DNA from: Oligoflexales bacterium
GTDB lineage: Bacteria; Bdellovibrionota_B; Oligoflexia; Oligoflexales; JAGOVF01
NCBI GenBank assembly: GCA_018060885.1
Contig: JAGOVF010000001.1
Span: 2,481-66,480 of the forward strand
Direction of reading: 5' to 3'
Length of the DNA stretch: 64,000 nucleotides
Made by a program: the position numbers and the translations under genes. Below are positions 4,988 to 61,105 of the stretch, piece after piece (within the stretch, counting starts at the first letter, position 1; each line of letters starts with the position of its first letter). The notes under the pieces were generated by a model. It was not told where the DNA came from. It saw only the letters and a program-made list of their open reading frames with translations, and did not search any database.

Positions 4988-5076
4988 TTCGGAGCTTCGG
5001 GAAATAACTTTAGCGAAATGGCAATAAATTATTTTTTTAGCTATTTTTTTCGAATGCTATTTACTGTTCGTTTATG

Positions 5077-5117
5077 CCGAGCCTAGCCACGCTTTCTAAA
5101 GTAACTCTCAGAGAAGC
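5077..5117 (+). repeat. Motif D, copy 1 (41 nt; 36/41 identical to 23284-23324)
   Basis: ccgagcctagccacgctttctaaagtaactctcagagaagc versus ccaagcctcgccatgctttctaaagtaactctcagaaaaac. Each copy is followed by a small hairpin. Confidence 0.7.
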
Positions 5118-5283
5118 TGTTTGTATCACACAGCTTTAGATATACGAATCACGTTTAACACAGTCATTCTTGTTAGAACATTTAGTATGGAAGAGTGCAG
5201 CACGGAGAATCTGGTGCTAAGGAGTAAGTTAAAAAACAAAGCAGAACGTGTTGCGAATATTATGCACCCAGAACTGAAGCTTA

Positions 5284-5429
5284 CTTATGTAATAAGACCT
5301 GACTTGTCTTAGCCGCCAGAGGAACTGGTGAGGGCAGGACGCCCGAACCGGTAGCGATAATTTTGCCATGGATGGCATAAAAATTGAGCGGTCCTCTGGC
5401 GGCTAAGACAAGTCAGGCTTATTACATAA
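5284..5429 (+). repeat. Family A structured repeat, copy A1 (84-nt conserved core 5316-5399 on a 30-bp copy-specific stem)
   Basis: The core is CCAGAGGAACTGGTGAGGGCAGGACGCCCGAACCGGTAGCGATAATTTTGCCATGGATGGCATAAAAATTGAGCGGTCCTCTGG. Arm 5285-5315 pairs with 5400-5429, with one bulged A at 5297. The element lies 56 nt downstream of the stop of the minus-strand gene 5485..6873. Confidence 0.85.
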
Positions 5430-5484
5430 ATGAAAATCGATTAAATATGTGAACTACCCAGAAATTAATTTATTGATTTTTAAT

Positions 5485-6873
5485 TTAGCTAAAAATCGTC
5501 TCTTCGAGGCCAAAATCATCGAAGCCTTCAAGATTATTTTTATTTCCCGCAGATTGGGATTGAGAGTCTTCAGAAAAATCATCTTCAAAAGGTGATGGTA
5601 TAGTTTGGCCACTCGGTGTTCCGGCAATACGTTCTTCTACACCTTCAATCGTGTAAGTCATATCGCCTTGTTTTTTGCGTGAGTCATCCGAAACGATCGT
5701 ATAACCACTTCGTTTGATAATGCGATCCATCTGATCTAAATTGGCTTGCGCCACACTATAGTCTGGATCGCTGCGACAGGCACTTTCAAAACAAATCTTT
5801 GCATTCTGCGGATCTTTTTGTCGGCGATAACCGACACCCATATTAAAAAAGAGCTTAGCTTGGGTGCGTGGGCTTTTATCGCCAACAGCGTTGATGGCAG
5901 CATCATAAAGTTTCATACCGGCATCGAAATTTCCACGTCGAATTAGCATCACTGCGGAAGAATTAAACATCGCCGCAAGCTCGACTGGAGAAACTGAACC
6001 TTGCACGATTTCTAAGGCTTCGTTAATCTCGCCATCCATCAGCCGAACTTTACCTTTGCCTTGTAAAGCCTCTTTGTTATTAGAGTCTAGAGCCAATGCA
6101 TTATCAAAAGCTTCAGCGGCCTTTTCATTTTTGCCTACATTGAGCAAAACTTCCCCAAGGCCAACGAGCTTTTCTGGATCAAATGGATTAAGCAAAGTGA
6201 TTTTTGAGTAAATTGCCTCAGCTTCCTTATAAATACCAACTTTCATGAGAGATCTAGCATAAATGTGCAGATATTTAATATTTGGCGGATTCATTTCTGG
6301 AAGCGGCGTTAAGATTTTTAAAGCTTCTTTTGCCAAACCATCTTGGAAATAGGACTCTGCAAGCTCAGCTCTTAAATAAAGGCTGTCTGGATTTTTATCA
6401 CAGAGATCTGTCAAGATGCGTTTCATCCCGGTAAAATCTTGCGCAATCCGTGCTCGCTGCACCCGTGTCAAATCATCCTTAAAAGCAGACCGCGCAGTGC
6501 CTCGACGAATGGTGTGACCTAAATTTGAAGCCAGTTCTTTTGCTTCATAAGCACCAATATGTATTTGTGTTACACCAAATTCCAGCGCAACAGAAATTAA
6601 ACTATCACTCATTTGTAAACTTGCTAATAAAATGGGTCGAGATGCTAAGCCACCTAAAAATACACATTTTTTCAGAATGCGAACACAAGCCGCCTCGTCA
6701 CCGTTCCAATCCAAAACAAAAAGACCGGTAGGAAAACGTTCAACACTATAAAGGGCATCATTAACAGAGCTTTGCTCGACAATGTTACTAATGGCTTTAA
6801 GCTGCAGCTGATTGCGCACAACTTCAGCAAACTGCTTGTCGCTACTAAAAATTATTGCGTCTACTACTGCCAT
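5485..6873 (-). CDS. TPR-repeat protein with an N-terminal CheY-like (possibly pseudo-) receiver domain
   Basis: The N-terminal ~120 aa look receiver-like (..GLFVLDWNGDE..) but lack the usual N-terminal acidic pair. The middle has multiple TPR-like AxxxYxxAL repeats. The tail is acidic. Confidence 0.65.
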   Translation of the reverse strand: MAVVDAIIFSSDKQFAEVVRNQLQLKAISNIVEQSSVNDALYSVERFPTGLFVLDWNGDEAACVRILKKCVFLGGLASRPILLASLQMSDSLISVALEFGVTQIHIGAYEAKELASNLGHTIRRGTARSAFKDDLTRVQRARIAQDFTGMKRILTDLCDKNPDSLYLRAELAESYFQDGLAKEALKILTPLPEMNPPNIKYLHIYARSLMKVGIYKEAEAIYSKITLLNPFDPEKLVGLGEVLLNVGKNEKAAEAFDNALALDSNNKEALQGKGKVRLMDGEINEALEIVQGSVSPVELAAMFNSSAVMLIRRGNFDAGMKLYDAAINAVGDKSPRTQAKLFFNMGVGYRRQKDPQNAKICFESACRSDPDYSVAQANLDQMDRIIKRSGYTIVSDDSRKKQGDMTYTIEGVEERIAGTPSGQTIPSPFEDDFSEDSQSQSAGNKNNLEGFDDFGLEETIFS

Positions 6874-14352: not shown

Positions 14353-15195
14353 CTACTGTTGCAACAGTGACAAAGCCATTTGTGGAATGCTGTTTGCTTG
14401 AGATAAGACCGAGATTCCCGCTTGGGTTAAAATTGAATTTTTAGTCAATTCAGCTGTTTCTGCGGCAATATCGACGTCTTTAATACGTGAGCGCGCTGCT
14501 GATAAATTCTCAATTGAAATAGATAAATTTCGAATCGTCGAGGTTAAACGGTTTTCGATGGCACCGAGTTTACCGCGCGTCGAAGAGACGTGTTCGATTG
14601 CACTGTCAATAACCGACAAACTCTGCTGCGCATCGAATTTTGTACCGACACCTAGATCAGCCAAACCCATTTGATCGGCATTGACGTCGAGTTGGAAAGC
14701 ATCAAAAGAAATTCGGTCGACACCCAACACGTTGCTACCACCAGTGTTGACTTGAAAATCTAAAGAGCCGCCTGTACCGTCTAACAAATAAGTTCCATTA
14801 AATTCAGTTGAGTTTGCAATTCTATCCATCTCTTCTATGAGAGATGAATATTCTTCCTGTAGATAGCGTCTTTCTTCTGGACCGATAGTATCACTTGCCG
14901 ACTGGACTCCTAATTCTCGTAAACGTACTAAAATATTTTGAACTTCGTTTAAACCACCTTCAGCAACTTGAATCAAAGAAACACCATCTGAGGCATTACG
15001 CTGAGCTTGAACAAGGCCTGTTACTTTTGCACGTAGTTTTTCCGTGATTGCCAAACCGGCGGCATCATCACCAGCTCGATTGATCCTATAACCACTCGCT
15101 AAGCGCTCTAACGATTGATCCAACAATCGGCGCGTTTGCTGTAAATGGCGCTGTGATGTTAACGACGATACGTTCGTCGCAATCCGTAATCCCAT
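14353..15195 (-). CDS. fliC: Flagellin
   Basis: N-terminus MGLRIATNVSSLTSQRHL...LASGYRINRAGDDAAGLAI and C-terminus ...ILTQAGISVLSQANSIPQMALSLLQQ are canonical flagellin D0/D1 segments. RBS GGAGG. Confidence 0.95.
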   Translation of the reverse strand: MGLRIATNVSSLTSQRHLQQTRRLLDQSLERLASGYRINRAGDDAAGLAITEKLRAKVTGLVQAQRNASDGVSLIQVAEGGLNEVQNILVRLRELGVQSASDTIGPEERRYLQEEYSSLIEEMDRIANSTEFNGTYLLDGTGGSLDFQVNTGGSNVLGVDRISFDAFQLDVNADQMGLADLGVGTKFDAQQSLSVIDSAIEHVSSTRGKLGAIENRLTSTIRNLSISIENLSAARSRIKDVDIAAETAELTKNSILTQAGISVLSQANSIPQMALSLLQQ

Positions 15196-21298: not shown

Positions 21299-22347
21299 GG
21301 CCAGAAAGTGTTTTGCCAACATCAATTCTTAAAAGCCCCCAAATATATATCGTAATTTTTGCAATTTTGGTCTTTTTTTTGAGCCTATTCTACGGCGTCG
21401 TTGATCTTGATATTTTTTCTATCATCATGACAGATGCTAAAATGACATCTTATCTCTTTTCAAATACAAACGATTCATTTATTCTTTTTCAAGTGCGTGT
21501 ACCGCGTATTTTTTCAGCTTTACTCGCCGGAGCTTGCCTTGCAGCGGGCGGCGTATTAAGCCAAGGACTTTTTCGCAACGAACTCGCGAGTCCATCTATT
21601 CTGGGCACGAGTGCTGGTGCAGCTTTTTTTGCAAGCTTGGCTTTTTATTTTGCTTGGGCACAAAGTCACTTCTTAGCTGTAGCTGGATCGGCTTTTTTAG
21701 GCGCACTTCTAGCTACATTTATTCTGTTAACACTTTTAACAGGAGTTCATTACACACGTTACAGCTTTTACTTACTGCTCGGAGGATTTGCGCTTTCTAG
21801 CTTTCTTGGCGCATTAAGCAGCTTTATTGTTAGCTTTCTTATGCGCGAACAAATTCAAGCTTTGGCAGTTATGCGTTGGCTTTTGGGCAGCTTCAACTCT
21901 AGTACTTTAGAACAAGTGCAGTTTGCCTTACCTTTGGCGATCTTGGCTTTTATTTTTTCTCTGAAAATTAGTAGAGCATTGAACATTTTGGCTTTAGGGG
22001 AAGACAGCGCCGGCAACCTTAGTATCGACATTAAAAAACTACAGGTTTTATCTTTGCTGCTTATCGCTTTTTTAACGGCTATTGCTGCGGGTCTAGGTGG
22101 AATCATTCCTTTTGTCGGATTAGTCGCACCGCACCTCACGCGCCTTATTCTTGGACCTGAACATCGACAGCTTTTGATCTATAGCAGCATCAATGGAGCG
22201 AGTCTTCTAGTGCTAGCAGATTGGTTCGGCCGAGTAGTGAATCCACCTTATGAACTTCAGGTAGGAATTATTACCTCGCTGTTGGGCGCGCCATTTTTTC
22301 TGCTACTCATTCGTCGCCAACTTCGACAGTCGAGAGAGGCTACATGA
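21295..22347 (+). CDS. FecCD/BtuC-family permease
   Basis: About 9-10 TM helices, conserved GVLSQGLFRNELASPSILGTSAGA, and a 4-nt overlap with both neighbours. Confidence 0.9.
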   Translation: MRPESVLPTSILKSPQIYIVIFAILVFFLSLFYGVVDLDIFSIIMTDAKMTSYLFSNTNDSFILFQVRVPRIFSALLAGACLAAGGVLSQGLFRNELASPSILGTSAGAAFFASLAFYFAWAQSHFLAVAGSAFLGALLATFILLTLLTGVHYTRYSFYLLLGGFALSSFLGALSSFIVSFLMREQIQALAVMRWLLGSFNSSTLEQVQFALPLAILAFIFSLKISRALNILALGEDSAGNLSIDIKKLQVLSLLLIAFLTAIAAGLGGIIPFVGLVAPHLTRLILGPEHRQLLIYSSINGASLLVLADWFGRVVNPPYELQVGIITSLLGAPFFLLLIRRQLRQSREAT

Positions 22348-23126
22348 TCAAAGTGATGAATAAATTCGATCTTTGTTTTGGAACGAGCAAAATCCTTTCG
22401 CAAATCGAACTAGAATTGGCCGAGGGATCATTGACAGCCCTTATAGGCAAAAATGGCTCCGGAAAAACTAGTCTTTTAAAATGCTTAACGGGGTTTTATC
22501 CTTATCTTAATGCATCAATTCTTGTTGGCCCTGAACTAAAACCTCTTTCAGAATTCGACCCAACTCAGCGCGCCAAAACCATTGCGTGGTTGGCAACCAA
22601 TCAGCAGCTCGCTTTTGACTTTACCGTCGAGGAAATTGTCGCTATGGGACGCTACCCATGGTCAAAAGGCTATTTATCTCATCATGATAAGCAGTTGATT
22701 GAAAACTCTCTACAACAATTGGATCTGCAGAAATTACGCCGAAAAAGAATTTTTAGTCTCAGTTCTGGAGAGCAGCAGCGAGTTTATATTGCAAGAATTT
22801 TTGCTCAGGACACGCCGATTATTTTTTTAGACGAGCCCTTTGCAAATTTAGACCTTTGCTACAGCTTGGAGTTTTTTGACTTATTAAACGCGCTTAAAGA
22901 CAAAGGGAAAACAATAGTTCTTAGTATCCACGACTTGCATTTTGTTCAGCAAAATTTCAAAAAAGCTCTTGTGATGCAACAAGGCAAGGTCCTCATCCAC
23001 GATGATATTGAGCAATGCTTTCGCAATGAAGTGTTAAACAAAGCATTTGAACTATATGCCTCGCCTAGCTCGCCAGTCCAAGCACTGTCTTTACAACGAG
23101 TTCATCCACGTGATGTATCCACGTGA
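22344..23126 (+). CDS. ABC importer ATP-binding protein (BtuD/FecE/HmuV-like)
   Basis: Walker A GKNGSGKTS, signature LSSGEQQR, Walker B IFLDEPFANLD. Confidence 0.9.
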   Translation: MIKVMNKFDLCFGTSKILSQIELELAEGSLTALIGKNGSGKTSLLKCLTGFYPYLNASILVGPELKPLSEFDPTQRAKTIAWLATNQQLAFDFTVEEIVAMGRYPWSKGYLSHHDKQLIENSLQQLDLQKLRRKRIFSLSSGEQQRVYIARIFAQDTPIIFLDEPFANLDLCYSLEFFDLLNALKDKGKTIVLSIHDLHFVQQNFKKALVMQQGKVLIHDDIEQCFRNEVLNKAFELYASPSSPVQALSLQRVHPRDVST

Positions 23127-23151
23127 TGCACACTTTTTTGAGCGACTTTCA

Positions 23152-23308
23152 TTTAGAAAGCATTTCGAGGCTTGGATGAACGAGCTGCCAGAGGACCGCT
23201 CAATTTTTATGCCATCCATGGCAAAATTATCGCTACCGGTTCGGGCATCCCGCCCTCACCAGTTCCTCTGGCAGCTCGTTCATCCAAGCCTCGCCATGCT
23301 TTCTAAAG
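23152..23308 (-). repeat. Family A structured repeat, copy A2 (core 23188-23271, inverted relative to A1/A3; 36-bp stem)
   Basis: The reverse complement of 23188-23271 is identical to the A3 core. Arm 23152-23187 pairs with 23272-23307, apart from a 2x2 mismatch at 23164-23165. The element starts 26 nt after the stop of the plus-strand gene 22344..23126. Confidence 0.85.
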
Positions 23309-23324
23309 TAACTCTCAGAAAAAC
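23284..23324 (+). repeat. Motif D, copy 2 (its first 24 nt form part of the right arm of A2)
   Basis: See 5077-5117. Homology to locus 1 extends leftwards through the whole A2 right arm (compare 5066-5101). Confidence 0.7.
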
Positions 23325-23493
23325 AGGCAGCACGCTGTTCCAAGCACATAATTAGCACAAAATCCTGCAACCTTGCAGATCATTTGGCATAGAAGTCTGC
23401 AGTTCGGCAAGATCTGCAGGTGTGAGTATGTTGAAAAACAAATGCCTTATTTGTGTATTGATCTGCGTATGCACCCTAAGCTGACAATCACTT

Positions 23494-23645
23494 GAGTCTA
23501 TAGCAAAGGCCTTGTATTGGCCGCCAGCCAGAGGAACTGGTGAGGGCGGGATGCCCGAACCGGTAGCGATAATTTTGCCATGGATGGCATAAAAATTGAG
23601 CGGTCCTCTGGCTGGCGGCCAATACAAGGCCTCTGCTATAGACTC
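23494..23645 (+). repeat. Family A structured repeat, copy A3 (core 23528-23611; 34-bp stem)
   Basis: The core is identical to rc(A2) and 82/84 identical to A1. Arm 23494-23527 pairs with 23612-23645, with one mismatch at 23506. The element lies 52 nt downstream of the stop of the minus-strand cyclase gene. Confidence 0.85.
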
Positions 23646-23696
23646 TATGAAATTCGTTTAAATGTGTGCATCACCAAGTTAAAAATACGCAAAAAA

Positions 23697-26168
23697 CTAC
23701 TTGTGTTTAAACGTATAAACACCATCCCAATTATCACCAGGAGGATGCTCACGGTAGTATTGAATTCGGTTTAAATAAAGCAAACTTGGGCCATCATCTG
23801 GACGGATTTTAATGCATTGCATAAAAAGTTTTTCAGCATCGTCCCATGCCTGTTTCTGATATGCCAAACGTCCTGCTGCGAAGCTTTGAACCATTTCTGA
23901 AATTAAATGTTGCTGACGAATGACATCAGGTCTAGTCACTTCAAATACTCGTACCGGTTCATTCTTTCCTTTGACGCGAATATCATCTAAGTCCCTAGTA
24001 ATGAATTTGCCAGGAGTTAGCTTTGCATGAGTGAACTCGCTAATCATGATTTTAATTCCATACTCTTTAGTCAAACCCTCTAAGCGCGCACCCAGGTTTA
24101 CCGCATCACCCATAACAGTATAAGTAAAGCGTTCTCCTGAACCCATGTTGCCGACCGCCATAGCCCCAGTATTAAGCCCCATTCCAATATCAATTTCTGG
24201 ATAACCACGCTGGCGAAAGTCATGTTTGAGAGCATCCATGGCATAAAGCATTTGCACAGCAGCATCGACACCCAGATCAGGATGCAAGGGTGCTTCAATG
24301 GGGGCACCCCAAAATGCCATGATGGCATCTCCGATATATTTATCAAGTACGCCACCGCTGCGCAGGATTATACTCGTCATCGGTGTAAAATAGTCATTCA
24401 TCAATTCACAAAGCTTTTCTGGCGAAAGGCTCTCAGAAATCGTCGTAAATCCCCTGACGTCAGAAAAAAACACAGTAAGTTCTTTCTTTTCTCCGCCTAG
24501 TTTTAAAGCTCCTGGATTATCGAGCAATTGAGAGATGACCTCTGGACTCAAATAGTGGGCAAATGCGCCTTTGACTTTTTTACGTTCCTGTTCTTCGGTA
24601 AAGTACTTGTAGAGAGTTATCACAATAAAAAGACCAGAAATCTCAATAAATGGAACTCCCATATAAGTCCAAACACCTTTGGCGTTGAACATATAAAAGC
24701 GATCAAAAAGATAATAACCCAATAAAAAGAGCACGACCAAAACACCGGCATAGGCCGCACGGCTAAATAAAATAATCGGCGTGAAAATAAGTCCAACTAT
24801 CAAAATGATATAAAGTTCTTGAGCATAAACACTTGCTGGACGCTTCAGAAATTCACCGCTCAAAATATTGTCCAAGGCCGCGGCATGGTTTTCGACACCA
24901 TCCAGAGCTGGGTCAAAAGGATTGGGCCTTTGATCGTTGCCTCCGATGATGGTCGCACCGAGCATCAAAACTGCACCTTTGAGATTCTTTTTTTCTTCCG
25001 CAGTGAAGCTATTGTGATAAGCATCTGCGAGACTGTAATGATGAAAGCTGCGCCCAGGTCCACGATGATTGAGCAGCAGCCTGCCTAAGCCATCTGGATC
25101 AACTGGTATATCTATAGTGTTGGTATCATCTTTGCGATCTACTAAACTGATAGATTCCACACCGTTTTGATCAAAGAATGCGACGATATCACGCTCTGCA
25201 GCTTCCGCCGCGACTTTTAAGGCCATCGAAGGCATCAGATTTCCATCGATTACCGAGACGAGACTTACCCACCTGGCTATAGCGTCATTGTCAGAATTAT
25301 TACTAAAAAACCCGAAATGCGGTGATGCAGCGGAAATGACCGGAATGTTTGTTACGGCTGCGGGAATTTGCAGTTCTTTATAATCAGTCAACTCTTTACC
25401 TTCTGGCAAAATGACTGCCTGGATCGCCGATCCTTCTGCCATCGTGTCGACACCTTCGTAGCGCCGCTCAGTTCTGCCAGCTGCCTTGACCTCATGTTCC
25501 ATTCCGAAATAAAAGTAGCCAAGTACAATATTGCCAAAATTCTGAATGCCCCTAGCAAAACTAAGATCTCCTGGGCTTTGCTCGAGCATTTTATCGAGTT
25601 CGGCGAAAGGGTTCTGCCACTCATTGGCTAAAGACTTCTGTGTTTTATTCTGGCGAATTTGTTTGAGCAACGGCAACACATCTGAAACACTAGCTTTTTC
25701 GGCCTCACTGAATATTGCGTCAAAAGCAATCCAAGATACGCCGAGTTTTTTAAGGTTATTAAAAGCTTGTTCGTAATAACGGCGAGAAAAAGGAAAACGG
25801 CCAAATTCGTTGATTGCTTTTTCATCTATGGCTAAAATACCAATGTTTTTCGTGGGTTTTTTTGGCCCGCGCACCGTAAATCGATGGTCGAGGAGCTTGG
25901 TTTCCATACTAAATATAAAATCATTCTTTCGCCCAAAGTTTTGATAGTGTATGAAGGTCAGATAGTAAAGACTCCCAACTATTACAGCGGCTACAATTAG
26001 AATTGGGGTTTTCTTTTTAAGTTCTGATAGCCATGCTTTTTTTTTCTGGTTTTTTGCAGTCACGAATTTATTGTCCTTCAAATGTTGAAATATATTAAAC
26101 CGATCTTTGCCCTTCGAGGAATATATGAGAATAAATAGAACAAATCGAAACGAACAAAAAAATTTCAA
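23697..26168 (-). CDS. CHASE2-sensor class III adenylate/guanylate cyclase
   Basis: N-terminal TM, a periplasmic CHASE2-like region, a TM cluster, then the cyclase core LTVFFSDVRGFTTISE...KYIGDAIMAFWGAP and a conserved C-terminal tail. The exact start is uncertain (possible internal TTG/GTG). Confidence 0.85.
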   Translation of the reverse strand: MKFFCSFRFVLFILIYSSKGKDRFNIFQHLKDNKFVTAKNQKKKAWLSELKKKTPILIVAAVIVGSLYYLTFIHYQNFGRKNDFIFSMETKLLDHRFTVRGPKKPTKNIGILAIDEKAINEFGRFPFSRRYYEQAFNNLKKLGVSWIAFDAIFSEAEKASVSDVLPLLKQIRQNKTQKSLANEWQNPFAELDKMLEQSPGDLSFARGIQNFGNIVLGYFYFGMEHEVKAAGRTERRYEGVDTMAEGSAIQAVILPEGKELTDYKELQIPAAVTNIPVISAASPHFGFFSNNSDNDAIARWVSLVSVIDGNLMPSMALKVAAEAAERDIVAFFDQNGVESISLVDRKDDTNTIDIPVDPDGLGRLLLNHRGPGRSFHHYSLADAYHNSFTAEEKKNLKGAVLMLGATIIGGNDQRPNPFDPALDGVENHAAALDNILSGEFLKRPASVYAQELYIILIVGLIFTPIILFSRAAYAGVLVVLFLLGYYLFDRFYMFNAKGVWTYMGVPFIEISGLFIVITLYKYFTEEQERKKVKGAFAHYLSPEVISQLLDNPGALKLGGEKKELTVFFSDVRGFTTISESLSPEKLCELMNDYFTPMTSIILRSGGVLDKYIGDAIMAFWGAPIEAPLHPDLGVDAAVQMLYAMDALKHDFRQRGYPEIDIGMGLNTGAMAVGNMGSGERFTYTVMGDAVNLGARLEGLTKEYGIKIMISEFTHAKLTPGKFITRDLDDIRVKGKNEPVRVFEVTRPDVIRQQHLISEMVQSFAAGRLAYQKQAWDDAEKLFMQCIKIRPDDGPSLLYLNRIQYYREHPPGDNWDGVYTFKHK

Positions 26169-27129: not shown

Positions 27130-28392
27130 ATGCAAAACACCGGTTTAAAAAACTTACTCTATATTTTGAAACGCACTAGCAAGTCTTTAGCGTTGATGAT
27201 TTTTCTATTTTTACAAATTTCACCTTCTCTTAGCGCAGAAGAATTACCAGAATTTTTTACTCCTGTTGGCCCCATGGGTATGGGCGGAGCTTTCACTGCG
27301 GTAGCTAATGACGAAAATAGTGTATGGACAAATCCCGCGGGAATCTCTCGTGTACGTAAAGCCCGCGCTCGCAGCAAGCTTCATTTAGCAAAGTTCCCCA
27401 ATCTCATTGCAGGAGCCAACTCGGCTAGCCGCAGTTTTTATTCTGGTGTTCAAAGTTCGCAAAGCACAAGCTCAAGCACAGTTCTTGCCAACTCAGAAGA
27501 ACTCGATACCAAACCCTTTTGGGCGCGTGTTGCCATAGCTCCTATGGCATTTTTCGAACTTGGAAAAAACAATCCAGCCGCTTTTGGAATTTTTATGAAT
27601 ACACAAGCAAGTGCCGTCATCACTGCGGAAGATCCAGAAAGAGCCCAGGTAAAAAGCACCTCTGATCTTGGCGCTATTTTTGGCTGGAGCTTCTCGAACC
27701 AAAGTAATCGTTTTAGTGCTGGATTTAATGTTCGGCCGGTTCATCGTTATGCTTTCGAAGACAATATCGCGACATCGCTATTAACAGACCACACTGAGAT
27801 GACCAAGCTCATGCAAGATGGTTCGAATACCTCCACTGGCCTTGGTGTCGATTTAGGCATGATCTACACGCTTGCAGATTATTGGTTTCCGACTTTTGGA
27901 GTATCATTACTTAATGCACCACTTGCTTGTAAAGATAACTACCTCAATCCCTTCAGCGAAAAACGCGAGACTGTCTGCGGCACTGTCTATTCAGGTTCAT
28001 TTGCCAACGAAGATGCCTTGTCTACAATCGATCCTACTGATATTCGTGCCGGTCTCTCTATCACACCTAGACTTTCGCGAACAATGGCTCTGCGCATTGC
28101 CATCGACATGCATCATATCCACTTTGCATCAGGGACTAGCAACTACGGTTTAAGCGGAGTCGATGCCGGAAAAACTTTGCATGCTGGTTTGGAATTGCTT
28201 TTTGGCAATCCGCTTTTACCAAGTCCATTTAGTTTAAAATTTGGTGCGAATCAGGGTTTTATCACCACCGGAATGACACTAAGAATGCCGTACTTTAGCT
28301 TCGAACTTGTTTCTTACGGTACGGATCTGTCCAGCCAAGCTAAAACGAAAGAAGACCGCCGGATAGTGAGCTCCCTTTCCTTCGATTTCTAA
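27130..28392 (+). CDS. Outer-membrane beta-barrel protein (TraF_2/UPF0164-like)
   Basis: Signal peptide ending ..PSLSA. N-terminal GMGGAFTAVANDENSVWTNPAGIS motif. Alternating beta-strand pattern and a C-terminal aromatic residue (..LSFDF). Confidence 0.65.
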   Translation: MQNTGLKNLLYILKRTSKSLALMIFLFLQISPSLSAEELPEFFTPVGPMGMGGAFTAVANDENSVWTNPAGISRVRKARARSKLHLAKFPNLIAGANSASRSFYSGVQSSQSTSSSTVLANSEELDTKPFWARVAIAPMAFFELGKNNPAAFGIFMNTQASAVITAEDPERAQVKSTSDLGAIFGWSFSNQSNRFSAGFNVRPVHRYAFEDNIATSLLTDHTEMTKLMQDGSNTSTGLGVDLGMIYTLADYWFPTFGVSLLNAPLACKDNYLNPFSEKRETVCGTVYSGSFANEDALSTIDPTDIRAGLSITPRLSRTMALRIAIDMHHIHFASGTSNYGLSGVDAGKTLHAGLELLFGNPLLPSPFSLKFGANQGFITTGMTLRMPYFSFELVSYGTDLSSQAKTKEDRRIVSSLSFDF

Positions 28393-28517
28393 GGGATTGT
28401 CGTAAATCGACGATAACGGCGTTAGGACTCATTCGAAAATCCTCATGTACTTATGAAGTACACTGCGGTTTTCTCATTTCATCCTGCCTTGTTCTCCTCG
28501 ATTTTCAACAATCCCTT
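28391..28517 (+). repeat. Family B structured repeat, copy B1 (79-nt core 28419-28497 between a copy-specific outer stem)
   Basis: The core gcgttaggactcattcgaaaatcctcatgtacttatgaagtacactgcggttttctcatttcatcctgccttgttctcc is about 66/79 identical to 39824-39902. The outer stem aagggattgt (28391-28400) pairs with acaatccctt (28508-28517). The left arm overlaps the stop codon at 28390-28392. Confidence 0.8.
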
Positions 28518-28625
28518 TACTCTGTTCTAATGGATTTGTGCAATAATGGGACTGTTGAAAATTAGTGTCAACTAAGCTAGTTTTCAACGGTCTCTTTATT
28601 ATTTTTCTTGCTGGAGCATTTTGAC

Positions 28626-39767: not shown

Positions 39768-39786
39768 GAGACTGCAAAGCAGTCTC
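39768..39786 (+). terminator. Terminator-like hairpin after the small ORF
   Basis: GAGACTGC-aaa-GCAGTCTC, an 8-bp stem, followed by tacCTTT. The U-tract is weak. Confidence 0.35.
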
Positions 39787-39796
39787 TACCTTTGGC

Positions 39797-39921
39797 GAGG
39801 CTGCAGGGGAATTAACGATTACTGCGTTAGACCTAACTCGAAAATCCTCATGTACCCAAAAGGTACACTGCGGTTTTCTCATTACGGTCTGCCTTGTTCT
39901 CCTTAATTCTTCTGCAGCCTC
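39797..39921 (+). repeat. Family B structured repeat, copy B2 (core 39824-39902; 19-bp copy-specific outer stem)
   Basis: The outer stem gaggctgcaggggaattaa (39797-39815) pairs with ttaattcttctgcagcctc (39903-39921). Two of these pairs are G:T only on the plus strand. See B1 for the core. Confidence 0.8.
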
Positions 39922-39930
39922 TAATGTTTT

Positions 39931-39980
39931 GTCATTCTGAGCGCACCCCGTGTCATCCTGAGCCACAGGCGAAGGATCTC
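39931..39980 (+). repeat. Family C repeat fragments (GTCATTCTGAGCGCA + GTCATCCTGAGCCACAGGCGAAGGATCTC)
   Basis: This is the same word family as 26921-27026, but here only same-orientation halves are present. It is followed by a third occurrence of CGAAAATCCTC (39983-39993). Confidence 0.6.
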
Positions 39981-54826: not shown

Positions 54827-57517
54827 GTGGCAAAGCTAAAATTTGTTCCATCATTGCTGCAGATGCGTGTAACTATCTCTCAAAGTGAGATTGATAACTC
54901 TCGCTTTGTCGAGCAGCTCTTATTAAAGACGAAAAATAAATTTAATGAATTACAACAATCGAGCTCAGTAATAAGTTTTAAACTCTTTCCAGAAAATTTT
55001 AAATCTTTAGCTAACAGAAAAAACGAAATTTTACTAAATTCCGAAAATACATATACCGTCATATGCGGCCAGGCACGCCCAGAACTTCCTGGTCTGACTT
55101 GTGAATTTAAAATGGCAAATTTACCGTCAATCTTGCTAAATTTTTCTGCTAATCAAGAACTAGCGAAAACATGGAAATGGGAATGGCTTAATCTCTTTGT
55201 AGAAGAGCAACTTCCAGATAACGCATCGAATTTGCAAATCAATCAGTCGCAAATTTTGCTCGCCCTTGTAAGCAAACAAAACTCAATCGAGCTCAATGAA
55301 TTTCATATTGAATTTCTCGAAAAAAATCGCGAAAAAAATCCACTTCGACCTTTCAAAATTTTAATACATCCACATAGCCGAGAGATAAGTCTGCAGATAT
55401 TGAACTTTGAAAAAACTTTTCAATCGTCTTTAGATGTTCTATCAAAAAGCCTTGAGCAATTTATAATTCGCTATAACTTAGAAAAAAATAGCCACTTCAC
55501 ATTTTTAAATTTCTGGTTCGATAAACAATGCCAAGCACTTTTTCGCTCGCCCAATCTTTTCAATGACGAATTTAAGCATGAAATTTTAGTCGGGTTTGAA
55601 TTTAGCAAACAAAAAATACCCGAAGATATAGCTACGCAAGAATTTCAACATGAAGATTCTTTTAATGACGACCTTACTAAAATTGAGGCTCCCGTATTAC
55701 CTGACGAACTCTCTTTCATTTTAGAAAGCAAGCATCATTTTGATGAACAAAGTCCTGAAATCTCTACTCAGCCTTCAACGCAATCTCTATCGCAACCTTC
55801 AACGGTGTCTGCATCGCAGTCGAACGCGGATATAGAATTCGCATTAGATACTTTGGATGACTCGCTCGAACCTGAAGCCATAGGAGAAGAAGTAATAGCA
55901 GTTAAGCCACAAAAAAACTCAGGATCACTTGCAGAGCAAAAATCAGCCGAGCAAAATTCTGCGGAGCAGGAACATCTAGGGCAAGACTCGCTTGAACAAG
56001 AGCCTTCTCACATTCTCACTCGAACATCTAAAACCAAACTTCTTATCGACGAAACAAGCTTCAATATTCTAGTAAGCTGCGTTCCCATCGAACTTCAAAA
56101 CAAAGACTACGAAGCTGCAGTTGGAGATTTCGACGATAGTATATATCAACAAAATTTCGATATGGATGAAACAAAATGGGTCAACTACCTTAAGACTCTT
56201 GGCATAGCCTTTGGAATTAACGAAAAGCTAGTTTCGGGAATTATATCGAATTTCAGAGCTAGAAAAAGTCTAAAAGACTTGGTGGTCGCACAAGGAATTC
56301 CTGCAACAGGAAACTCTCTGCCCTTTCTCTATCATAGCCATGCCTTTTCATATCAGCAAAAAGTTGCCGAAAACTCAAAAGTAGATCTACGAGAATTACA
56401 GCAAAGAAAAATCGTCAAAGCTGGTGAGCTCGTTGCAGAGGTGCGCTATAAAAAACTTGCTCGCAGTGGTATGACAGTTTTAGGTAAAAAAACTCCCCCA
56501 TTACCACCACAAAAATTCGTTGTCACGATAGGTGAAAATCTCATCGAAAAAGAACCAGGTTTTTACTATGCGCGTTTTGATGGTCAGCCAATTATTAAAA
56601 CTGACTACGTTTTCTTATCGACTACAATAGTCCATAATGGCGATGTCAACTTAGCGACTGGAAATATACATTTTAGTGGTGATATCGAAATTAATGGCAA
56701 TATAGAACGCGGTGCACATGTGACTGCTGGCGGCAGTATAACTGTGAATGGGAATGTTCTCAGTGGTCGAGTAAAAACTGGTAAAGATTTAATTGTCAAA
56801 GAAGGCATTATATCTGCAAAAGATGGCCCAATAAAAGTCGGTGGTAGCCTCACTGCTGGTTTTATCGAAAACTCTTCTTTGGTTGTCACTGATAAAATAA
56901 CCGTTAAGCGCAATATCTTAAACTCGATTATAACTACTGGCTCTCATGTTATTTTACAAAATGGAGATAGTGTTATCGCAGGTGGACGCTGCTTCTCCTG
57001 GGGCAGTGTCGTTTCTTACAATGTTGGTTTAAAACGAGGCTTACCGACTTGTATTAGCCTTGGAGTCAGTCCCTTAATCGAGAAAAGAATTGCAAATCTA
57101 AATTCAAGAATAGAATTGGTAGACAAACTTCAAGAAGAAATGAAGATAAAACAGACAGAAGCTCTCAAAGGCAAAGCCGGCTCTTTGAAGAAAAAAGGTG
57201 GAGCAACCGAAGAAGCCGAAGTTTGTCGAAAATATCTAATAAGAACGCGTCGAGTCATAGATAAATTAACCAAACAACGCGACCTTGCTATTGCAAGACG
57301 AGAGTATAATCACAATGCTCATTTAGTGGTGAAGAAACATCTCTATGGGAATACAAAAATCGAAGTTTGTGGGAAGTACACGCCACTAAATTCTGATATG
57401 GTAAGCGTAGCCGTGGTTTCTCGTAAAAAGCTTAGGGATAACGTCATACGACTTGAGCAATTATCTACTATAGATCTTAAGACTACTGACGAAGATGTAG
57501 AAGCTGAGGCTTCTTAA
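54827..57517 (+). CDS. Giant FapA/DUF342-family protein
   Basis: The C-terminal ~400 aa show the DUF342 beta-helix pattern (GDVNLATGNIHFSGDIEINGNIERGAHVTAGGSITVNGNV...) and a terminal coiled coil. The N-terminal ~450 aa are unique, with low-complexity repeats. The start is GTG 54827 or ATG 54863. Confidence 0.75.
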   Translation: MAKLKFVPSLLQMRVTISQSEIDNSRFVEQLLLKTKNKFNELQQSSSVISFKLFPENFKSLANRKNEILLNSENTYTVICGQARPELPGLTCEFKMANLPSILLNFSANQELAKTWKWEWLNLFVEEQLPDNASNLQINQSQILLALVSKQNSIELNEFHIEFLEKNREKNPLRPFKILIHPHSREISLQILNFEKTFQSSLDVLSKSLEQFIIRYNLEKNSHFTFLNFWFDKQCQALFRSPNLFNDEFKHEILVGFEFSKQKIPEDIATQEFQHEDSFNDDLTKIEAPVLPDELSFILESKHHFDEQSPEISTQPSTQSLSQPSTVSASQSNADIEFALDTLDDSLEPEAIGEEVIAVKPQKNSGSLAEQKSAEQNSAEQEHLGQDSLEQEPSHILTRTSKTKLLIDETSFNILVSCVPIELQNKDYEAAVGDFDDSIYQQNFDMDETKWVNYLKTLGIAFGINEKLVSGIISNFRARKSLKDLVVAQGIPATGNSLPFLYHSHAFSYQQKVAENSKVDLRELQQRKIVKAGELVAEVRYKKLARSGMTVLGKKTPPLPPQKFVVTIGENLIEKEPGFYYARFDGQPIIKTDYVFLSTTIVHNGDVNLATGNIHFSGDIEINGNIERGAHVTAGGSITVNGNVLSGRVKTGKDLIVKEGIISAKDGPIKVGGSLTAGFIENSSLVVTDKITVKRNILNSIITTGSHVILQNGDSVIAGGRCFSWGSVVSYNVGLKRGLPTCISLGVSPLIEKRIANLNSRIELVDKLQEEMKIKQTEALKGKAGSLKKKGGATEEAEVCRKYLIRTRRVIDKLTKQRDLAIARREYNHNAHLVVKKHLYGNTKIEVCGKYTPLNSDMVSVAVVSRKKLRDNVIRLEQLSTIDLKTTDEDVEAEAS

Positions 57518-57572: not shown

Positions 57573-58118
57573 CTATCTCTTTACATTTCCCGCAACAGGA
57601 ACTTTCGTTTTAGCGGCTTCTTTAACTTTTTCCATCGCTTGTTTGACTTCTTCAACCTGCGCTGAGCCAGACGCAGCTTCGCGTTTTTTCACTTCTTCCA
57701 TGATATTATGGCGGGTCGTGTACTCAACAGCTGACAAGATAATCTGTTTGCCTTTGCGATTTTTTAAATTAAAAATCAATGGTGCCTTTAGATTTGCAGT
57801 CATGTTTTGTGGATTAGTCGGCATTGTGATTATAACTGAAATAACCGCATCTTCTTCCGTTTGAATTTCAAGGTCTGCGACCTCTTCTTCATTTACTTCT
57901 ACTGCGTAGTCTGGCTTAAATAATAAGGGGTTTATCAGTACAAAAGCTATGGCGCCATCATCTAAAGACTGTAACCATTTAAAAGGAGACTCTTTGTCAT
58001 GATCAAGCAAGACATACTTTCTCAGTTCTGGAAAGCCGATCAATCCAGAAGGAAGTAAAATAAGGTCTTTCTCTTGAACCTCAATTTCGCCGAATCGAGA
58101 TGTTGCAACTTTCAGCAA
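57573..58118 (-). CDS. fliW: Flagellar assembly factor FliW (CsrA antagonist) with C-terminal extension
   Basis: ..SRFGEIEVQEKDLILLPSGLIGFPELRKYVLL...PFKWLQSLDD..AFVLINP... I place the start at TTG 58116-58118 (GGAG 6 nt upstream), which gives MLKVATSRFGEI. The track's GTG start is at 58145. Confidence 0.85.
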   Translation of the reverse strand: MLKVATSRFGEIEVQEKDLILLPSGLIGFPELRKYVLLDHDKESPFKWLQSLDDGAIAFVLINPLLFKPDYAVEVNEEEVADLEIQTEEDAVISVIITMPTNPQNMTANLKAPLIFNLKNRKGKQIILSAVEYTTRHNIMEEVKKREAASGSAQVEEVKQAMEKVKEAAKTKVPVAGNVKR

Positions 58119-58287
58119 AAGACTCTCCTCTTCACAAAAACTCACTTAAAGAACTTACAGCGCACACTAAAACTTATGCCTGTTTAGGCATTACTCTCTG
58201 TTGCCGTACACTCTGTTGCCACTTTTCCCGTTGCCGTTTTGCGACTTCAGGACTTATCTTGATACAATTTACTGGTGATCTCATGCT

Positions 58288-58316
58288 ATTCTAAATAATA
58301 TTTTTTGATAAATCAA
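58288..58316 (-). promoter_or_regulatory. Sigma70-like promoter in the csrA-fliW spacer
   Basis: The minus strand reads TTGATT, a 17-nt spacer, then TAGAAT. It is followed by a leader of about 160 nt before the fliW start. Confidence 0.45.
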
Positions 58317-58339
58317 CATCTAGCTTCTAAGTTCCAAAA

Positions 58340-58624
58340 TCAGGTCTGCTTTTTTGGTTTTTTGATTACAAAAGTACCGGATTTGCCTTCTGAACGCAGA
58401 CCGCCGGCGTCGACATTTAATTTACTAAGATCAGCAGGATCCGTCATCGATGCCGCCTTATTCTCTTCATGGATACGTTGGAAAATTTCTTCTCGATGTA
58501 CAACAGTGTTTGGGCTCGCTTTTATCCCTAACCTAACTTGCTTGCCCTTGATTTGCATGACGATTACCTTAATTTCATCGCCAATTGAAATCGCCTCTCC
58601 TATTTTCCGTGTCAATACTAGCAA
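58340..58624 (-). CDS. csrA: Carbon storage regulator CsrA (flagellar-type) with C-terminal extension
   Basis: MLVLTRKIGEAISIGDEIKVIVMQIKGKQVRLGIKASPNTVVHREEIF. TTG start preceded by AGGAGG at 6 nt. 94 aa. Confidence 0.9.
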   Translation of the reverse strand: MLVLTRKIGEAISIGDEIKVIVMQIKGKQVRLGIKASPNTVVHREEIFQRIHEENKAASMTDPADLSKLNVDAGGLRSEGKSGTFVIKKPKKQT

Positions 58625-58715
58625 GCGAACCCTCCTTGGTCTGCCAGAATTCCGAGATAGCTACTCTAAAAGCAAGCCGCCTAAAAAAATTACTTCAAAT
58701 TTAAAAGTTACCTTG

Positions 58716-58744
58716 ATTCTAGACGATTTTTTCCAACAGGTAAA
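58716..58744 (-). promoter_or_regulatory. Sigma70-like promoter candidate upstream of csrA
   Basis: The minus strand reads TTTACC, a 17-nt spacer, then TAGAAT, within the 138-nt flgL-csrA gap. Confidence 0.35.
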
Positions 58745-58762
58745 CCCTCATATCAATAACAA

Positions 58763-59662
58763 TTACTGCATAAAATTTAACAAGGAAGGTTGCAAAAGTT
58801 TATTTGAAGTTAATAAAGTACTTTGCAAAACACTTTCCGACTTTTTAAAATCTGAACTACTGCGGTAGATATCTGCATCTTCGATCGTCGAACGCATTTT
58901 TTCCGTTTGTTCTTCCTCAAAAAGTAGCCTTTCGGACGCTTTTTGCAAACTACTATGCATAGCGCCAATCGTCGCTTGCGTTGAAGTGACCTTCTCTAAA
59001 TGAAAGTCCATCTCATCTATAGAATTGTGAATGGTTTCTTTATCATTAGCTTCCAAGCCGTCACGCAACACTCTTAAGCTCTCTAAAAGATTCATATGCC
59101 CGCTTGCACGCTCGTCGGCATTTGGTTCAAACAATAAACGCCCTGGAATATTAACCTGCCTAAAATCATTGCGTCCAATCGGCAGAAAAATCTGCCCATC
59201 ATCGCCAACAAACTCGCCTTCACTTGCAAAAGCCGGGGTTCGCGTGCGAAATCCAGAAAAGAGATACCTATTATTAAACGAAGCATTCCCGAGGCTCATA
59301 ATCTCATTCATTATTTCGTCTATTTCTTTTGAAACTGCATCACGGCTGCCTTGCGCATAAGTATCGTTTGCCATTCCGATCGCAAGCTCCTTAGCGCGTA
59401 TGAGCTTATCTGAAAGCGTAGTCACAGCCGCCTCTGTATTCTCCAGATAGCCTTTACCAAAATCAATATTGCGCTGAAACTGGCGCTTATTCGAAGAATC
59501 GTTTTTTAGGCTTATCACAGTACTAAAGCCTAAGGGGTCATCTTCAAGGGCATTAATTCTTTTTTGGGTGCTGATTTGACCCAATAGTTTTTCATTTTGA
59601 GTCTTTGCATTATTGACTCTATCAGCAACTACGTCATATCTTTTACTATCGGAAACTCGCAT
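58763..59662 (-). CDS. flgL: Flagellar hook-associated protein 3
   Basis: Flagellin-like N-terminus MRVSDSKRYDVVADRVNNAKTQ...INALEDDPLG and C-terminus. Located downstream of flgK. Confidence 0.85.
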   Translation of the reverse strand: MRVSDSKRYDVVADRVNNAKTQNEKLLGQISTQKRINALEDDPLGFSTVISLKNDSSNKRQFQRNIDFGKGYLENTEAAVTTLSDKLIRAKELAIGMANDTYAQGSRDAVSKEIDEIMNEIMSLGNASFNNRYLFSGFRTRTPAFASEGEFVGDDGQIFLPIGRNDFRQVNIPGRLLFEPNADERASGHMNLLESLRVLRDGLEANDKETIHNSIDEMDFHLEKVTSTQATIGAMHSSLQKASERLLFEEEQTEKMRSTIEDADIYRSSSDFKKSESVLQSTLLTSNKLLQPSLLNFMQ

Positions 59663-59680
59663 AACATAAGCCTATTTAAA

Positions 59681-61105
59681 CTAGCGTTTTAGACTCAATA
59701 CAGTTTCTAACATTTCGTCTACTGTCGTAATGAGCTTCGACGACGCTGCAAAACTAGATTGCCATTTCATTAAGTCCATCGCCTCTTCATCGAGTGACAC
59801 ACCCGAGACTGCGTCTTTGCGTGACTTAATATCAGACAGCATTATATCGTTTGCGTCTTTTAAATTACTTGTTCTAACAACTTCCAAGCCTACTTCACCA
59901 ACTATTCCAGCATAATATTCCGTTAAGTTCGCATTTCCGCCTGAAAGAATTTTGCGATCTTTCAGTCCCACGAGCTCATTTAAATTAACATTATCTCCTG
60001 GAGCATTCACCGAAACAGCCGCGGCGATGGCATCCGTACTCATACTGATCTCATCACTCAAGCTTAGTCTTTTTGCAGCTCCAGGCTCGCTTCCAACTTC
60101 ATTGAAAAAATTAACCCCATTTATCTCTTTAAAATCATTTAGTCCAAAACCCTCACGGTGAATCTTATTGAACTCACCAACGAAAGTTGTGACCATTTCA
60201 TCGTTTTTTACTCGCAATTGAGGAATAAACTGATCACGCAAATCGAGCAAACCACGTAATTGTCCCGATCCGACTTTATCTGTAATAGCACGCTTGTAGC
60301 CATTTTGATCAACAACAACCAGATCCACCAAGGCTTGATTTTCGGCCTTTGATTCTGTGGTCAGCTCTACATGATGGGCACCTTCTACAAACAACATATC
60401 GCCGACACCACGCACTGTCATCATGCCGCGTTCGTCTTCGTAGTAATTGACATCCATTATATTAGCGAGTTTGTTGACAATAGTGTCACGCTGGTCGCGC
60501 AAATCATTGGCTTCACTTTTGCGTCCGGCTTCTGCTACTTGAATCTTTACATTGAGCCCCGCAATATCCTTTACAAGGTCAGATGCTTCCGTTGCTAGAT
60601 GATTAACCGATTGATTGAGTTGCATTTGATTAGAATCTAAGTCAGCATCGATTTTCCGAAATCCATTTATTAAATCTATTGCATTCTCTCGTACAGAAGT
60701 TCTTGCTGTCACGTCATCGGGAAAAGAAGATAAATCTTGCAGAGAGTTGAAAAACTTTGTCATTTCATCAGATAGATTGGCCGTTAATTCTGGCGAAAAA
60801 ATTTGTGAGATGTTTTTAATACCTTCGAATTTTTTTTCGCTCGCCCCAGCTTCCTGCTGCGACTGATTGTATTGCTTTTCGACAAATTTATCATGAACGC
60901 GGTTAATCGAACCGACGTAGACGCCGTTTCCGATCAATATTCCACCGCGAACATCTGTCGGATCTCTTTGCGCAACGTTGACGCGCTGGCGCGAATAGCC
61001 CTCTGTGTGGGCATTGGCGATATTGTGTCCGCTCGTGTCAACCCCTTGGCGAGACGTGTATAACGACTCGGCTCCTATCCCTAGAGTATGGAATAGACCT
61101 GACAT
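59681..61105 (-). CDS. flgK: Flagellar hook-associated protein 1
   Basis: N-terminus MSGLFHTLGIGAESLYTSRQGVDTSGHNIANAHTEGYSRQ and C-terminus ..VSLDEEAMDLMKWQSSFAASSKLITTVDEML. Confidence 0.9.
   Translation of the reverse strand: MSGLFHTLGIGAESLYTSRQGVDTSGHNIANAHTEGYSRQRVNVAQRDPTDVRGGILIGNGVYVGSINRVHDKFVEKQYNQSQQEAGASEKKFEGIKNISQIFSPELTANLSDEMTKFFNSLQDLSSFPDDVTARTSVRENAIDLINGFRKIDADLDSNQMQLNQSVNHLATEASDLVKDIAGLNVKIQVAEAGRKSEANDLRDQRDTIVNKLANIMDVNYYEDERGMMTVRGVGDMLFVEGAHHVELTTESKAENQALVDLVVVDQNGYKRAITDKVGSGQLRGLLDLRDQFIPQLRVKNDEMVTTFVGEFNKIHREGFGLNDFKEINGVNFFNEVGSEPGAAKRLSLSDEISMSTDAIAAAVSVNAPGDNVNLNELVGLKDRKILSGGNANLTEYYAGIVGEVGLEVVRTSNLKDANDIMLSDIKSRKDAVSGVSLDEEAMDLMKWQSSFAASSKLITTVDEMLETVLSLKR

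Follow-up and report, generated by a model that had tools for sequence, protein, structure and literature searches.

The TwoAYGGAY RNA motif was named for the AYGGAY sequence of its two terminal loops, has a closing stem described as "very large", and was found in Clostridia and gamma-proteobacteria as well as in the human gut (Weinberg et al., 2010; PMC2864571). The published alignment contains at least five copies from Psychromonas ingrahamii, in which the core helices vary between copies while the GGA loops persist (PMC2864571). Tandem G-A pairs have been described in the TwoAYGGAY stem (Gardner and Eldai, 2014), and two sequences that strongly match the CsrA site have been predicted in the motif (PMC4333381). 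In Rfam, the family (RF01731) is a member of clan CL00106 (Csr/Rsm protein-binding), together with CsrB, CsrC and RsmX/Y/Z. It has covariation support outside the lineage investigated here, and no experimental test of it was found in the searchable literature.

The known Csr/Rsm decoys have their own promoters, intrinsic terminators and many more GGA sites than the element described below; known CsrA sponges contain 7-22 such sites each. For CsrA systems of the FliW type we know of no established decoy RNA. Repeats of the Correia type can be co-transcribed and cut by RNase III.

Here we analyzed a stretch of 64,000 nucleotides from an Oligoflexales bacterium (Bdellovibrionota), called the window in the following. 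It is ordinary chromosomal DNA with genes for transporters, SecDF, Lon and flagellar proteins. An earlier note had described in it a family of three elements, A1, A2 and A3, each with an 84-nt core on a long, copy-specific stem.

Results

An 84-nt Core Sits on Copy-Specific Arms

Exact matching located the core at 5316-5399 (plus strand) in A1, at 23188-23271 (minus strand) in A2 and at 23528-23611 (plus strand) in A3; three matches compare with 0.00 expected from 100 shuffles. The three copies are thus where the earlier note had placed them, with all coordinates right. As it had also stated, the cores of A2 and A3 are the same and A1 differs from both only at 5336 and 5340. The identity of A2 and A3 is unbroken over 86 nt, and the two divergent positions of A1 lie in loop 1.

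In every copy the core is enclosed by copy-specific arms that pair with each other as helix P1. The A1 arms (5' arm 5284-5315, 3' arm 5400-5429, plus strand) pair over 31 bp with a single bulged A at 5297, the A2 arms (5' arm 23272-23308, 3' arm 23152-23187, minus strand) over 36 bp with two mismatches side by side, and the A3 arms (5' arm 23494-23527, 3' arm 23612-23645, plus strand) over 34 bp with one mismatch. Adding the 8-bp core helix gives helices of 39-44 bp in A1, A2 and A3. A3 carries a CCAG insertion in its 5' arm, which is mirrored as CTGG in its 3' arm.

Homology between the copies continues past the arms, for ~56-70 nt on the 5' side and ~27 nt on the 3' side, so that the module measures ~230-250 nt once both conserved flanks are counted. 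All copies share the pattern GTTGAAAAACAAA ... TATGCACCC ... CTGA ... TYAC in the 5' flank and ATGAAAnTCGnTnAAA..GTGTGCATCAC in the 3' flank; solo flank motifs were found nowhere else in the 64-kb window. The 5' flank of A1 (GTTAAAAAACAAA ... TATGCACCC ... CTGA ... TTAC; 5228-5283, plus strand) was defined by alignment with the flanks of A3 and A2, and its 3' flank (ATGAAAATCGATTAAATATGTGAAC; 5430-5455, plus strand) ends 30 nt from the stop of a convergent TPR gene (5485-6873, minus strand). In A2, the 5' flank spans 23309-23371 and the 3' flank (ATGAAAGTCGCTCAAAAAAGTGTGCATCAC on the minus strand) 23123-23151, both on the minus strand, the latter overlapping the stop codon (23124-23126) of an ABC ATPase gene (22344-23126, plus strand). 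In A3, the 5' flank spans 23430-23493 and the 3' flank 23646-23674, both on the plus strand, the latter ending 23 nt from the stop codon (23697-23699) of a convergent CHASE2 cyclase gene. Measured from P1, the distances to the stop codons are 56 nt (A1), 26 nt (A2) and 52 nt (A3), with the same relative orientation each time, which confirms the range of 26-56 nt and the common orientation reported before.

Where the ABC ATPase gene ends (23107-23129), two occurrences of CCACGTGATG lie 3 nt apart. The gene takes its stop codon from the second of these, which continues into GTGATGCACAC, the terminal sequence of the A2 module; owing to this overlap, the last residues of the ABC ATPase may derive from, or be reshaped by, the element.

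The Core Folds into a Three-Way Junction with Two GGA Loops

The minimum free energy fold of A1 is a three-way junction (-93.6 kcal/mol, z = -15.0) and the centroid fold agrees with it, bearing out the closing helix and the two arms drawn on paper before. Two short hairpins lie side by side on the closing helix of 39-44 bp: in A1, P2 is ACUGGU-GA-GGGC[AGGAC]GCCC-GA-ACCGGU and P3 is CG-AU-AAUUUU-GCC[AUGGAU]GGC-AUA-AAAAUU-GAG-CG. Both terminal loops carry GGA, with 33 nt of sequence between the two. Loop 2 including its closing pairs is CAUGGAUG; loop 1 is AGGAC or GGGAU.

The GGA strand folds better than its complement by 5-14 kcal/mol in every copy, in a narrow or a wide frame, and the U-G pair of P2 becomes a C-A mismatch on the complementary strand. 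Sequence and fold place tandem 5'-GA/3'-AG in both P2 (U-GA-G / C-GA-A) and P3 (C-GA-U / U-GAG-C). The sole mismatch of the A3 arms favors the other strand: it is A-C when read on the GGA strand but becomes G-U in the complement. Overall, these predictions argue, with weak to moderate force, for a single-stranded fold of the GGA strand. In all three copies this strand is antisense to the gene whose stop codon adjoins it, a point that the earlier note had missed, and read-through from that gene would thus make the UCC strand. Scanning of the modules detected no U-tract terminator on either strand, in agreement with the earlier statement that the element is not an intrinsic terminator; consensus scans, which covered sigma-70-type sites, detected no sigma-70-like promoter before and no terminator after the modules.

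The Element Is Related to TwoAYGGAY

The whole window was scanned with cmscan against Rfam 15. The sole match at gathering level was RF01731, TwoAYGGAY, on the A1 core (43.3 bits; gathering cut-off 43 bits). With an E-value threshold, RF01731 was also found on A3 (42.2 bits) and on A2 (39.0 bits, minus strand), both just below the cut-off, and neither scan gave another match of note. The earlier note had named an Rfam hit as what would decide about novelty, and with RF01731 on all three copies the family as such is not new.

The alignments of all three copies are full-length (model positions 1-168), and A1, A2 and A3 match the Rfam consensus letters AG...GCCaUGGAuGGC...CGG exactly. Adjacent hairpins stand on a P1 of 39-44 bp, as is typical of the motif with its often very large P1, and tandem G-A pairs are present in the stems (P2, P3). 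Loop 2, AUGGAU, is an exact AYGGAY match. AYGGAY is not found in both terminal loops, since loop 1 has five letters and keeps GGA without the Y; it is AGGAC in A1 and GGGAU in A2, A3 and three extra copies described below. In P1, 42 of the 47 differences are compensated, and the core helices are invariant in this lineage and hence uninformative on covariation. The letters of loop 1, a GA/GA insert in P2 and the two scores below the cut-off mark the element as a variant rather than a plain member. Judged by its sequence, the Oligoflexales element is a divergent, lineage-restricted form of the known orphan RNA motif TwoAYGGAY.

In the stored part of the published TwoAYGGAY alignment, 91 reverse-strand stops lie near the motif, against 42 same-strand starts, 24 same-strand stops and 16 reverse-strand starts. 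The flank windows of this alignment are asymmetric, which makes the 91:24 ratio of stops biased and only suggestive.

Modules Occur as Divergent Pairs, One with a Decayed Partner

A2 and A3 are arranged head to head (divergently), with a spacer of 58 nt (23372-23429) between them. BLAST with the arms detected a second A2-like arm at 5064-5100, and alignment of 5020-5470 with 23105-23690 showed that the two loci are homologous throughout, including the spacer (5120-5227 in locus 1; for example CATTTAGTATGGAAGAGTGCAGCACGG versus CATTTGGCATAGAAGTCTGCAGTTCGG). A1 thus has a decayed partner of the A2 type (5044-5119, minus strand), in which three parts remain: a stretch resembling the 3' flank (5044-5063), one arm (5064-5100) and, from the 5' flank, its start (5101-5119). 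This arm is identical to that of A2 at 30 of 37 positions, and arm plus flank at 46 of 56; the core and the second arm are missing, and the alignment with A2 revealed no trace of a core. The count of three copies in the window therefore holds for modules with a core, to which a fourth, core-less remnant at ~5044-5119 has to be added. Homology across the entire locus and the remnant indicate that the duplicated unit was a divergent pair at least once, and that copies can decay. The decayed partner faces a gene start, not a gene end.

The A2-A3 pair is bounded by the inverted termini GTGATGCACAC/GTGTGCATCAC, compared with which the left end of locus 1 is degenerate. No direct repeat that could be a target-site duplication was found around the A2-A3 pair or A1, the boundaries being uncertain with so few copies. 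The earlier note had argued that the element is not a MITE. The conserved flanks, the termini and the duplication of the pair weaken this argument.

Both homologous spacers hold a small hairpin at the same place (23395-23417 and 5196-5222) with different stems, CTGCAG...CTGCAG in one and AGCAC...GTGCT in the other. Between the divergent modules, such a hairpin could serve as a protein site or represent a conserved structure.

Further Copies Are Found in the Same MAG

All three reverse frames are open across the core, and for this reason a collection of 5.8 billion proteins was searched with the translated core. Four spurious ORFs were retrieved, one of which is A3 of the window itself; the remaining three come from further contigs, and two of these carry the same prefix, KBD78, in their locus tags. 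Altogether, at least six copies are present in one Oligoflexales lineage, three in the window and at least three on other contigs of the same MAG, in addition to the one remnant. An exhaustive HMMER pass with the translated core over 1.84 billion representative proteins gave nothing further. Gene calling had made an ORF of just one of the three copies in the window, so the true copy number is probably higher.

BLAST of the element against plasmids and phages gave no match, and a scan of a viral contig collection with the core pattern gave 0 matches. Four pattern matches in a genome contig collection were dismissed as chance, lying inside high-GC coding DNA, and none of 27 in metagenome contigs belongs to this subfamily; most of these are a repeated coding sequence from one metagenome and a few are a different high-GC element. 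For relatives, the loci around cyclase homologues that are 58-68% identical (L034-L039, ~60 kb in total) were investigated, the nearest relative of the adjacent CHASE2 cyclase being 68% identical. Rfam and our own covariance model (R1) both found the element absent from these ~60 kb. One of the loci, L038, has a similar neighborhood without the element, with an ABC ATPase that is only 28% identical, so that its site is no more than a putative orthologue.

In two Logan contigs of SRR11088468, L005 (1299 nt) and L033 (5298 nt), the assembly breaks off once the A2 or A3 hairpin is reached, at 69 and 52 nt past the flanking stop codons. Such ends are explained by a perfect inverted repeat longer than the assembly k-mer and are thus uninformative on copy number. 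Palindromic elements of this type are likely under-represented in short-read assemblies.

The Arms Drift while the Core Is Frozen

Between the copies the arms are 52%, 65% and 42% identical (35-58% diverged). The arms had been called copy-specific: each copy is indeed self-complementary, but the arms are not unrelated to each other, being diverged homologues. At 42 of the 47 differing arm positions Watson-Crick pairing is kept in both copies, and together with the CCAG/CTGG insertion this bears out the symmetric change reported before. The core is identical at 82-84 of 84 positions in the DNA and at 27 of 27 in the peptide of all four ORFs. If it had changed at the rate of the arms, the probability of at least 82 of 84 identities would be below 1e-15. 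For the closest pair, A3 and the copy in ORF P0124, visible changes amount to 8/61 in arm and flank versus 0/81 in the core (Fisher p = 0.0009).

In two copies known from their ORFs alone, complementarity of the arms is possible at every visible position, over 28 and 31 nt, compared with a best run of 14 in 20,000 random controls. Arm and flank of these same copies are similar to those of A2 and A3, showing that arms travel with the element and then drift. Insertion of the core into pre-existing hairpins, with arms derived from the target DNA, was therefore rejected: arms and outer flanks are homologous between copies, and A3 and P0124, like A2 and P0122, share arms and flanks.

The invariance of the core may reflect selection on every core position or gene conversion between 84-nt tracts. 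The core tree (A2 = A3, A1 apart) conflicts with the tree of arms and flanks, in which A1 is nearer to A3, and this conflict is a hint of conversion between the adjacent inverted copies A2 and A3.

Several other candidates were tried and discarded. The arms are not guides against other loci, as no arm match besides the remnant occurs in the window. A small conserved ORF does not fit, since flank ORFs of 4-16 aa are unconserved and the spurious core ORFs diverge outside the core. Inspected by eye, sigma-54 and sigma-28 promoters in the flanks fail in spacing and key bases. An IS608-like TTAC target, the ssoA CS-6 sequence (TAGCGA) and the REP GTAG are lone short-motif coincidences without supporting context.

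csrA and fliW Are Encoded in the Window

A csrA gene, the inferred trans-acting partner, is located at 58340-58624 on the minus strand (tblastn 6.7e-18, 51% identical to E. coli CsrA). The Pfam matches are 5e-21 for CsrA and 7e-43 for FliW, and the CsrA residues L2, L4, R6, R44 and I47 are conserved. The gene is part of a csrA-fliW-flgL-flgK cluster (57573-61105; fliW at 57573-58145, minus strand), with flgI further on at 62647-63753.

The hag gene of B. subtilis provides the precedent for the layout of a FliW-type CsrA target. In the window, the leader of the flagellin gene (14353-15195, minus strand) contains GGA at 15230-15228 and at 15205-15203, 25 nt apart, the second inside the Shine-Dalgarno sequence. 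This leader would be expected to be a native FliW-type CsrA target.

Other Repeats

A second repeat, Family B, is present in two copies (28371-28537 and 39777-39941) with a shared core of ~95 nt, ...GCGTTAGRMCTMAYTCGAAAATCCTCATGTAC-loop-GTACACTGCGGTTTTCTCATT...CTGCCTTGTTCTCC, and copy-specific, imperfect inverted arms whose complementarity is 85-86%. Rfam gave no match for this family at E <= 1, and a candidate third copy at 57111-57238 is not a member.

The high-GC element of the metagenome contigs (L013 8570-8720, L016, L019, L020, L022 400-550 and L024; GC ~0.7) has a closing stem of 27-34 bp, a GCGCGCC[AUGGAU]GGCGCGC hairpin and a second arm with more GGA. The core is common to L022 and L024, whose arms differ from each other yet are self-complementary in each; U-G pairs are present on the GGA strand of L024. 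No Rfam match was found for this element at E <= 0.1. Long stems topped by GGA loops may form a wider class.

In metagenome Ga0307509, at least 13 contigs (L006, L008-L012, L014, L027-L032) share a repeat of at least 200 nt that is ~90% identical and coding-like; its match to the search pattern is fortuitous. The repeat probably represents a multicopy gene or a transposon in the genome of a eukaryote or in some other large genome.

Discussion

Our preferred reading, to which we assign a probability of roughly 0.4, is that the module acts as an RNA presenting two GGA loops to one CsrA dimer. The RNA would be made from the GGA strand, each GGA loop would engage one RNA-binding face of a single CsrA dimer, and the window's own CsrA, whose gene lies beside fliW, would find in the module a small decoy or docking site of high affinity. 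Rigidity of the junction and protection of the RNA would come from the long helix, which may in addition be a substrate of RNase III; a helix that needs only to pair would explain why just complementarity is kept. The design of the GGA apex, which recurs in RF01731, and the presence of csrA and fliW in the window suggest such a role. The better fold of the GGA strand, the frozen core between arms with compensated changes, the flagellin leader with its two GGA sites and a 64-kb window free of transposase and integrase genes also speak for it. Against it stand the lack of a promoter or terminator in our scans, the antisense position of the GGA strand to the adjoining gene, and the two loop GGA sites per module, fewer than in the known sponges. 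Moreover, the element behaves as repeated DNA, being multicopy, with pairs duplicated together with their spacer and one copy decayed, and translated-core searches in other organisms as well as the ~60 kb of relatives' DNA did not contain it. The core shows no covariation in this lineage, and conversion without selection could explain this.

More specifically, the modules would be CsrA-titrating RNAs in a system where FliW otherwise controls CsrA, each with a minimal two-site clamp for one CsrA dimer and a duplex of RNase III size, organized in divergent pairs and amplified by duplication; this we put forward tentatively, as a possibility that has the odds against it. If it is true, the orphan TwoAYGGAY class gains a function, and RNA antagonism of CsrA exists outside the gamma-proteobacterial CsrB/Rsm paradigm. 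TwoAYGGAY has been in Rfam since 2010 without a tested function, and the motif is now extended to Bdellovibrionota. A frozen 84-nt apex, mirrored change in arms of 31-36 bp and csrA-fliW in the same 64 kb form a natural experiment, and with defined sequences the putative decoy function becomes a simple question of in vitro binding.

The repeat behavior is the starting point of the strongest competing explanation, that of a selfish, palindromic repeat in DNA, of foldback or MITE/REPIN type, which has no function as RNA. An enzyme recognizing the folded apex would copy the ~550-nt pair or a single module, intrastrand template switching would correct the arms of the quasi-palindrome, and gene conversion would keep the cores identical. 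At least six copies and one remnant in one MAG, with none found in relatives or elsewhere in the collections searched, are what would be seen, as are the duplication of the whole pair, spacer included, the inverted termini GTGATGCACAC/GTGTGCATCAC that bound the A2-A3 pair, the intergenic position beside gene ends and the decay of one copy. The conflict between the core tree and the tree of arms and flanks is of the kind that conversion between adjacent inverted copies would produce. However, the 64-kb window contains no transposase, integrase or RAYT (Y1 transposase) gene, and no target-site duplication was seen at the ends of the pair. At 35-58% divergence of arms and flanks the copies are old, yet the core is intact wherever it is retained, and the GGA-loop apex recurs in Clostridia and gamma-proteobacteria with covarying helices, which points to a constrained function. 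The modules also lie in mixed orientation on one replichore (A1 plus, A2 minus, A3 plus; the GC skew of the window is uniformly negative save for one near-zero bin), which argues against a lagging-strand ssDNA mode of transposition. We regard a selfish repeat as somewhat less probable than the CsrA reading. Were it true, the element would be an example of palindrome maintenance by mirrored mutation, and a warning that selfish DNA may make up part of an Rfam "RNA" family.

The position of the modules raises a further alternative, a cis-acting 3'-end element of the convergent gene that is read on the complementary (UCC-loop) strand, with a 40-bp helix that would stop 3' exonucleases, offer RNase III a site or hinder read-through, comparable to Correia and ERIC. 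With the flank included, all three copies begin 0-30 nt past a stop codon in the same relative orientation, and the helix is equally long on both strands. The predominance of reverse-strand stops (91) in the stored part of the published alignment points the same way, but the asymmetric flank windows bias the 91:24 ratio. This explanation leaves the 84-nt apex frozen for no reason while the helix varies freely; the complement folds less well, neither strand has a U-tract, and the decayed partner of A1 faces a gene start. We consider it improbable. A protein-binding site at the DNA level, a cruciform or ssDNA three-way junction for a recombinase, replication or nucleoid protein, would fit the full invariance of both core-helix strands (base-specific recognition) and a long perfect palindrome that could extrude, but it has neither a candidate protein nor a precedent for the fold, and the U-G pair, the tandem GA and the covariation of the Rfam family point to a single-stranded, RNA-like fold, making it highly improbable.

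Comparison with Known Systems

REP/REPIN-RAYT, Correia and ERIC elements resemble the Oligoflexales element in being multicopy, intergenic, hairpin-forming and located beside gene ends. In those repeats the arms or termini are conserved and the center varies, whereas here the apex is frozen and the arms drift. The conserved arms, 5' GTAG and RAYT of REP/REPIN have no counterpart: the arms are variable, and GTAG occurs only in the junction GGUAGCG. Integron attC sites likewise keep structure more than sequence, lie just past a stop codon in a fixed orientation and fold as single strands. Their layout is the opposite one, conserved at the stem base, in the R and L boxes, and variable in the center, and the window contains no integrase or cassette array.

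With the Csr/Rsm decoy sRNAs the module shares GGA-bearing hairpin loops, matches to a CsrA/RsmE site of the CANGGANG type, in a genome that encodes csrA; these are putative CsrA binding sites. The decoys lack a closing helix of 40 bp and do not occur as dispersed palindromic repeats, unlike the module, for which an own promoter and terminator were not detected in scans for sigma-70-type sites.

The closest relative is TwoAYGGAY. Differences from it are an extra 2x2 GA internal loop in P2, two extra nucleotides in P3 and the five-letter loop 1 (AGGAC/GGGAU), with one of the three copies reaching the gathering score. The host belongs to the Oligoflexales (Bdellovibrionota) rather than to the Clostridia, gamma-proteobacteria and gut metagenomes of TwoAYGGAY, the core is invariant between copies whereas the core helices of the Psychromonas copies vary, and the module has conserved flanks and forms divergent pairs. 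Common to both are a three-way junction, two adjacent hairpins with GGA loops and an identical GCCAUGGAUGGC apex, as well as the conserved AG and CGG junction letters and tandem GA pairs. Both also have a P1 that is very long and poorly conserved, occur in several copies per genome, and are usually followed downstream by the end of a convergent gene.
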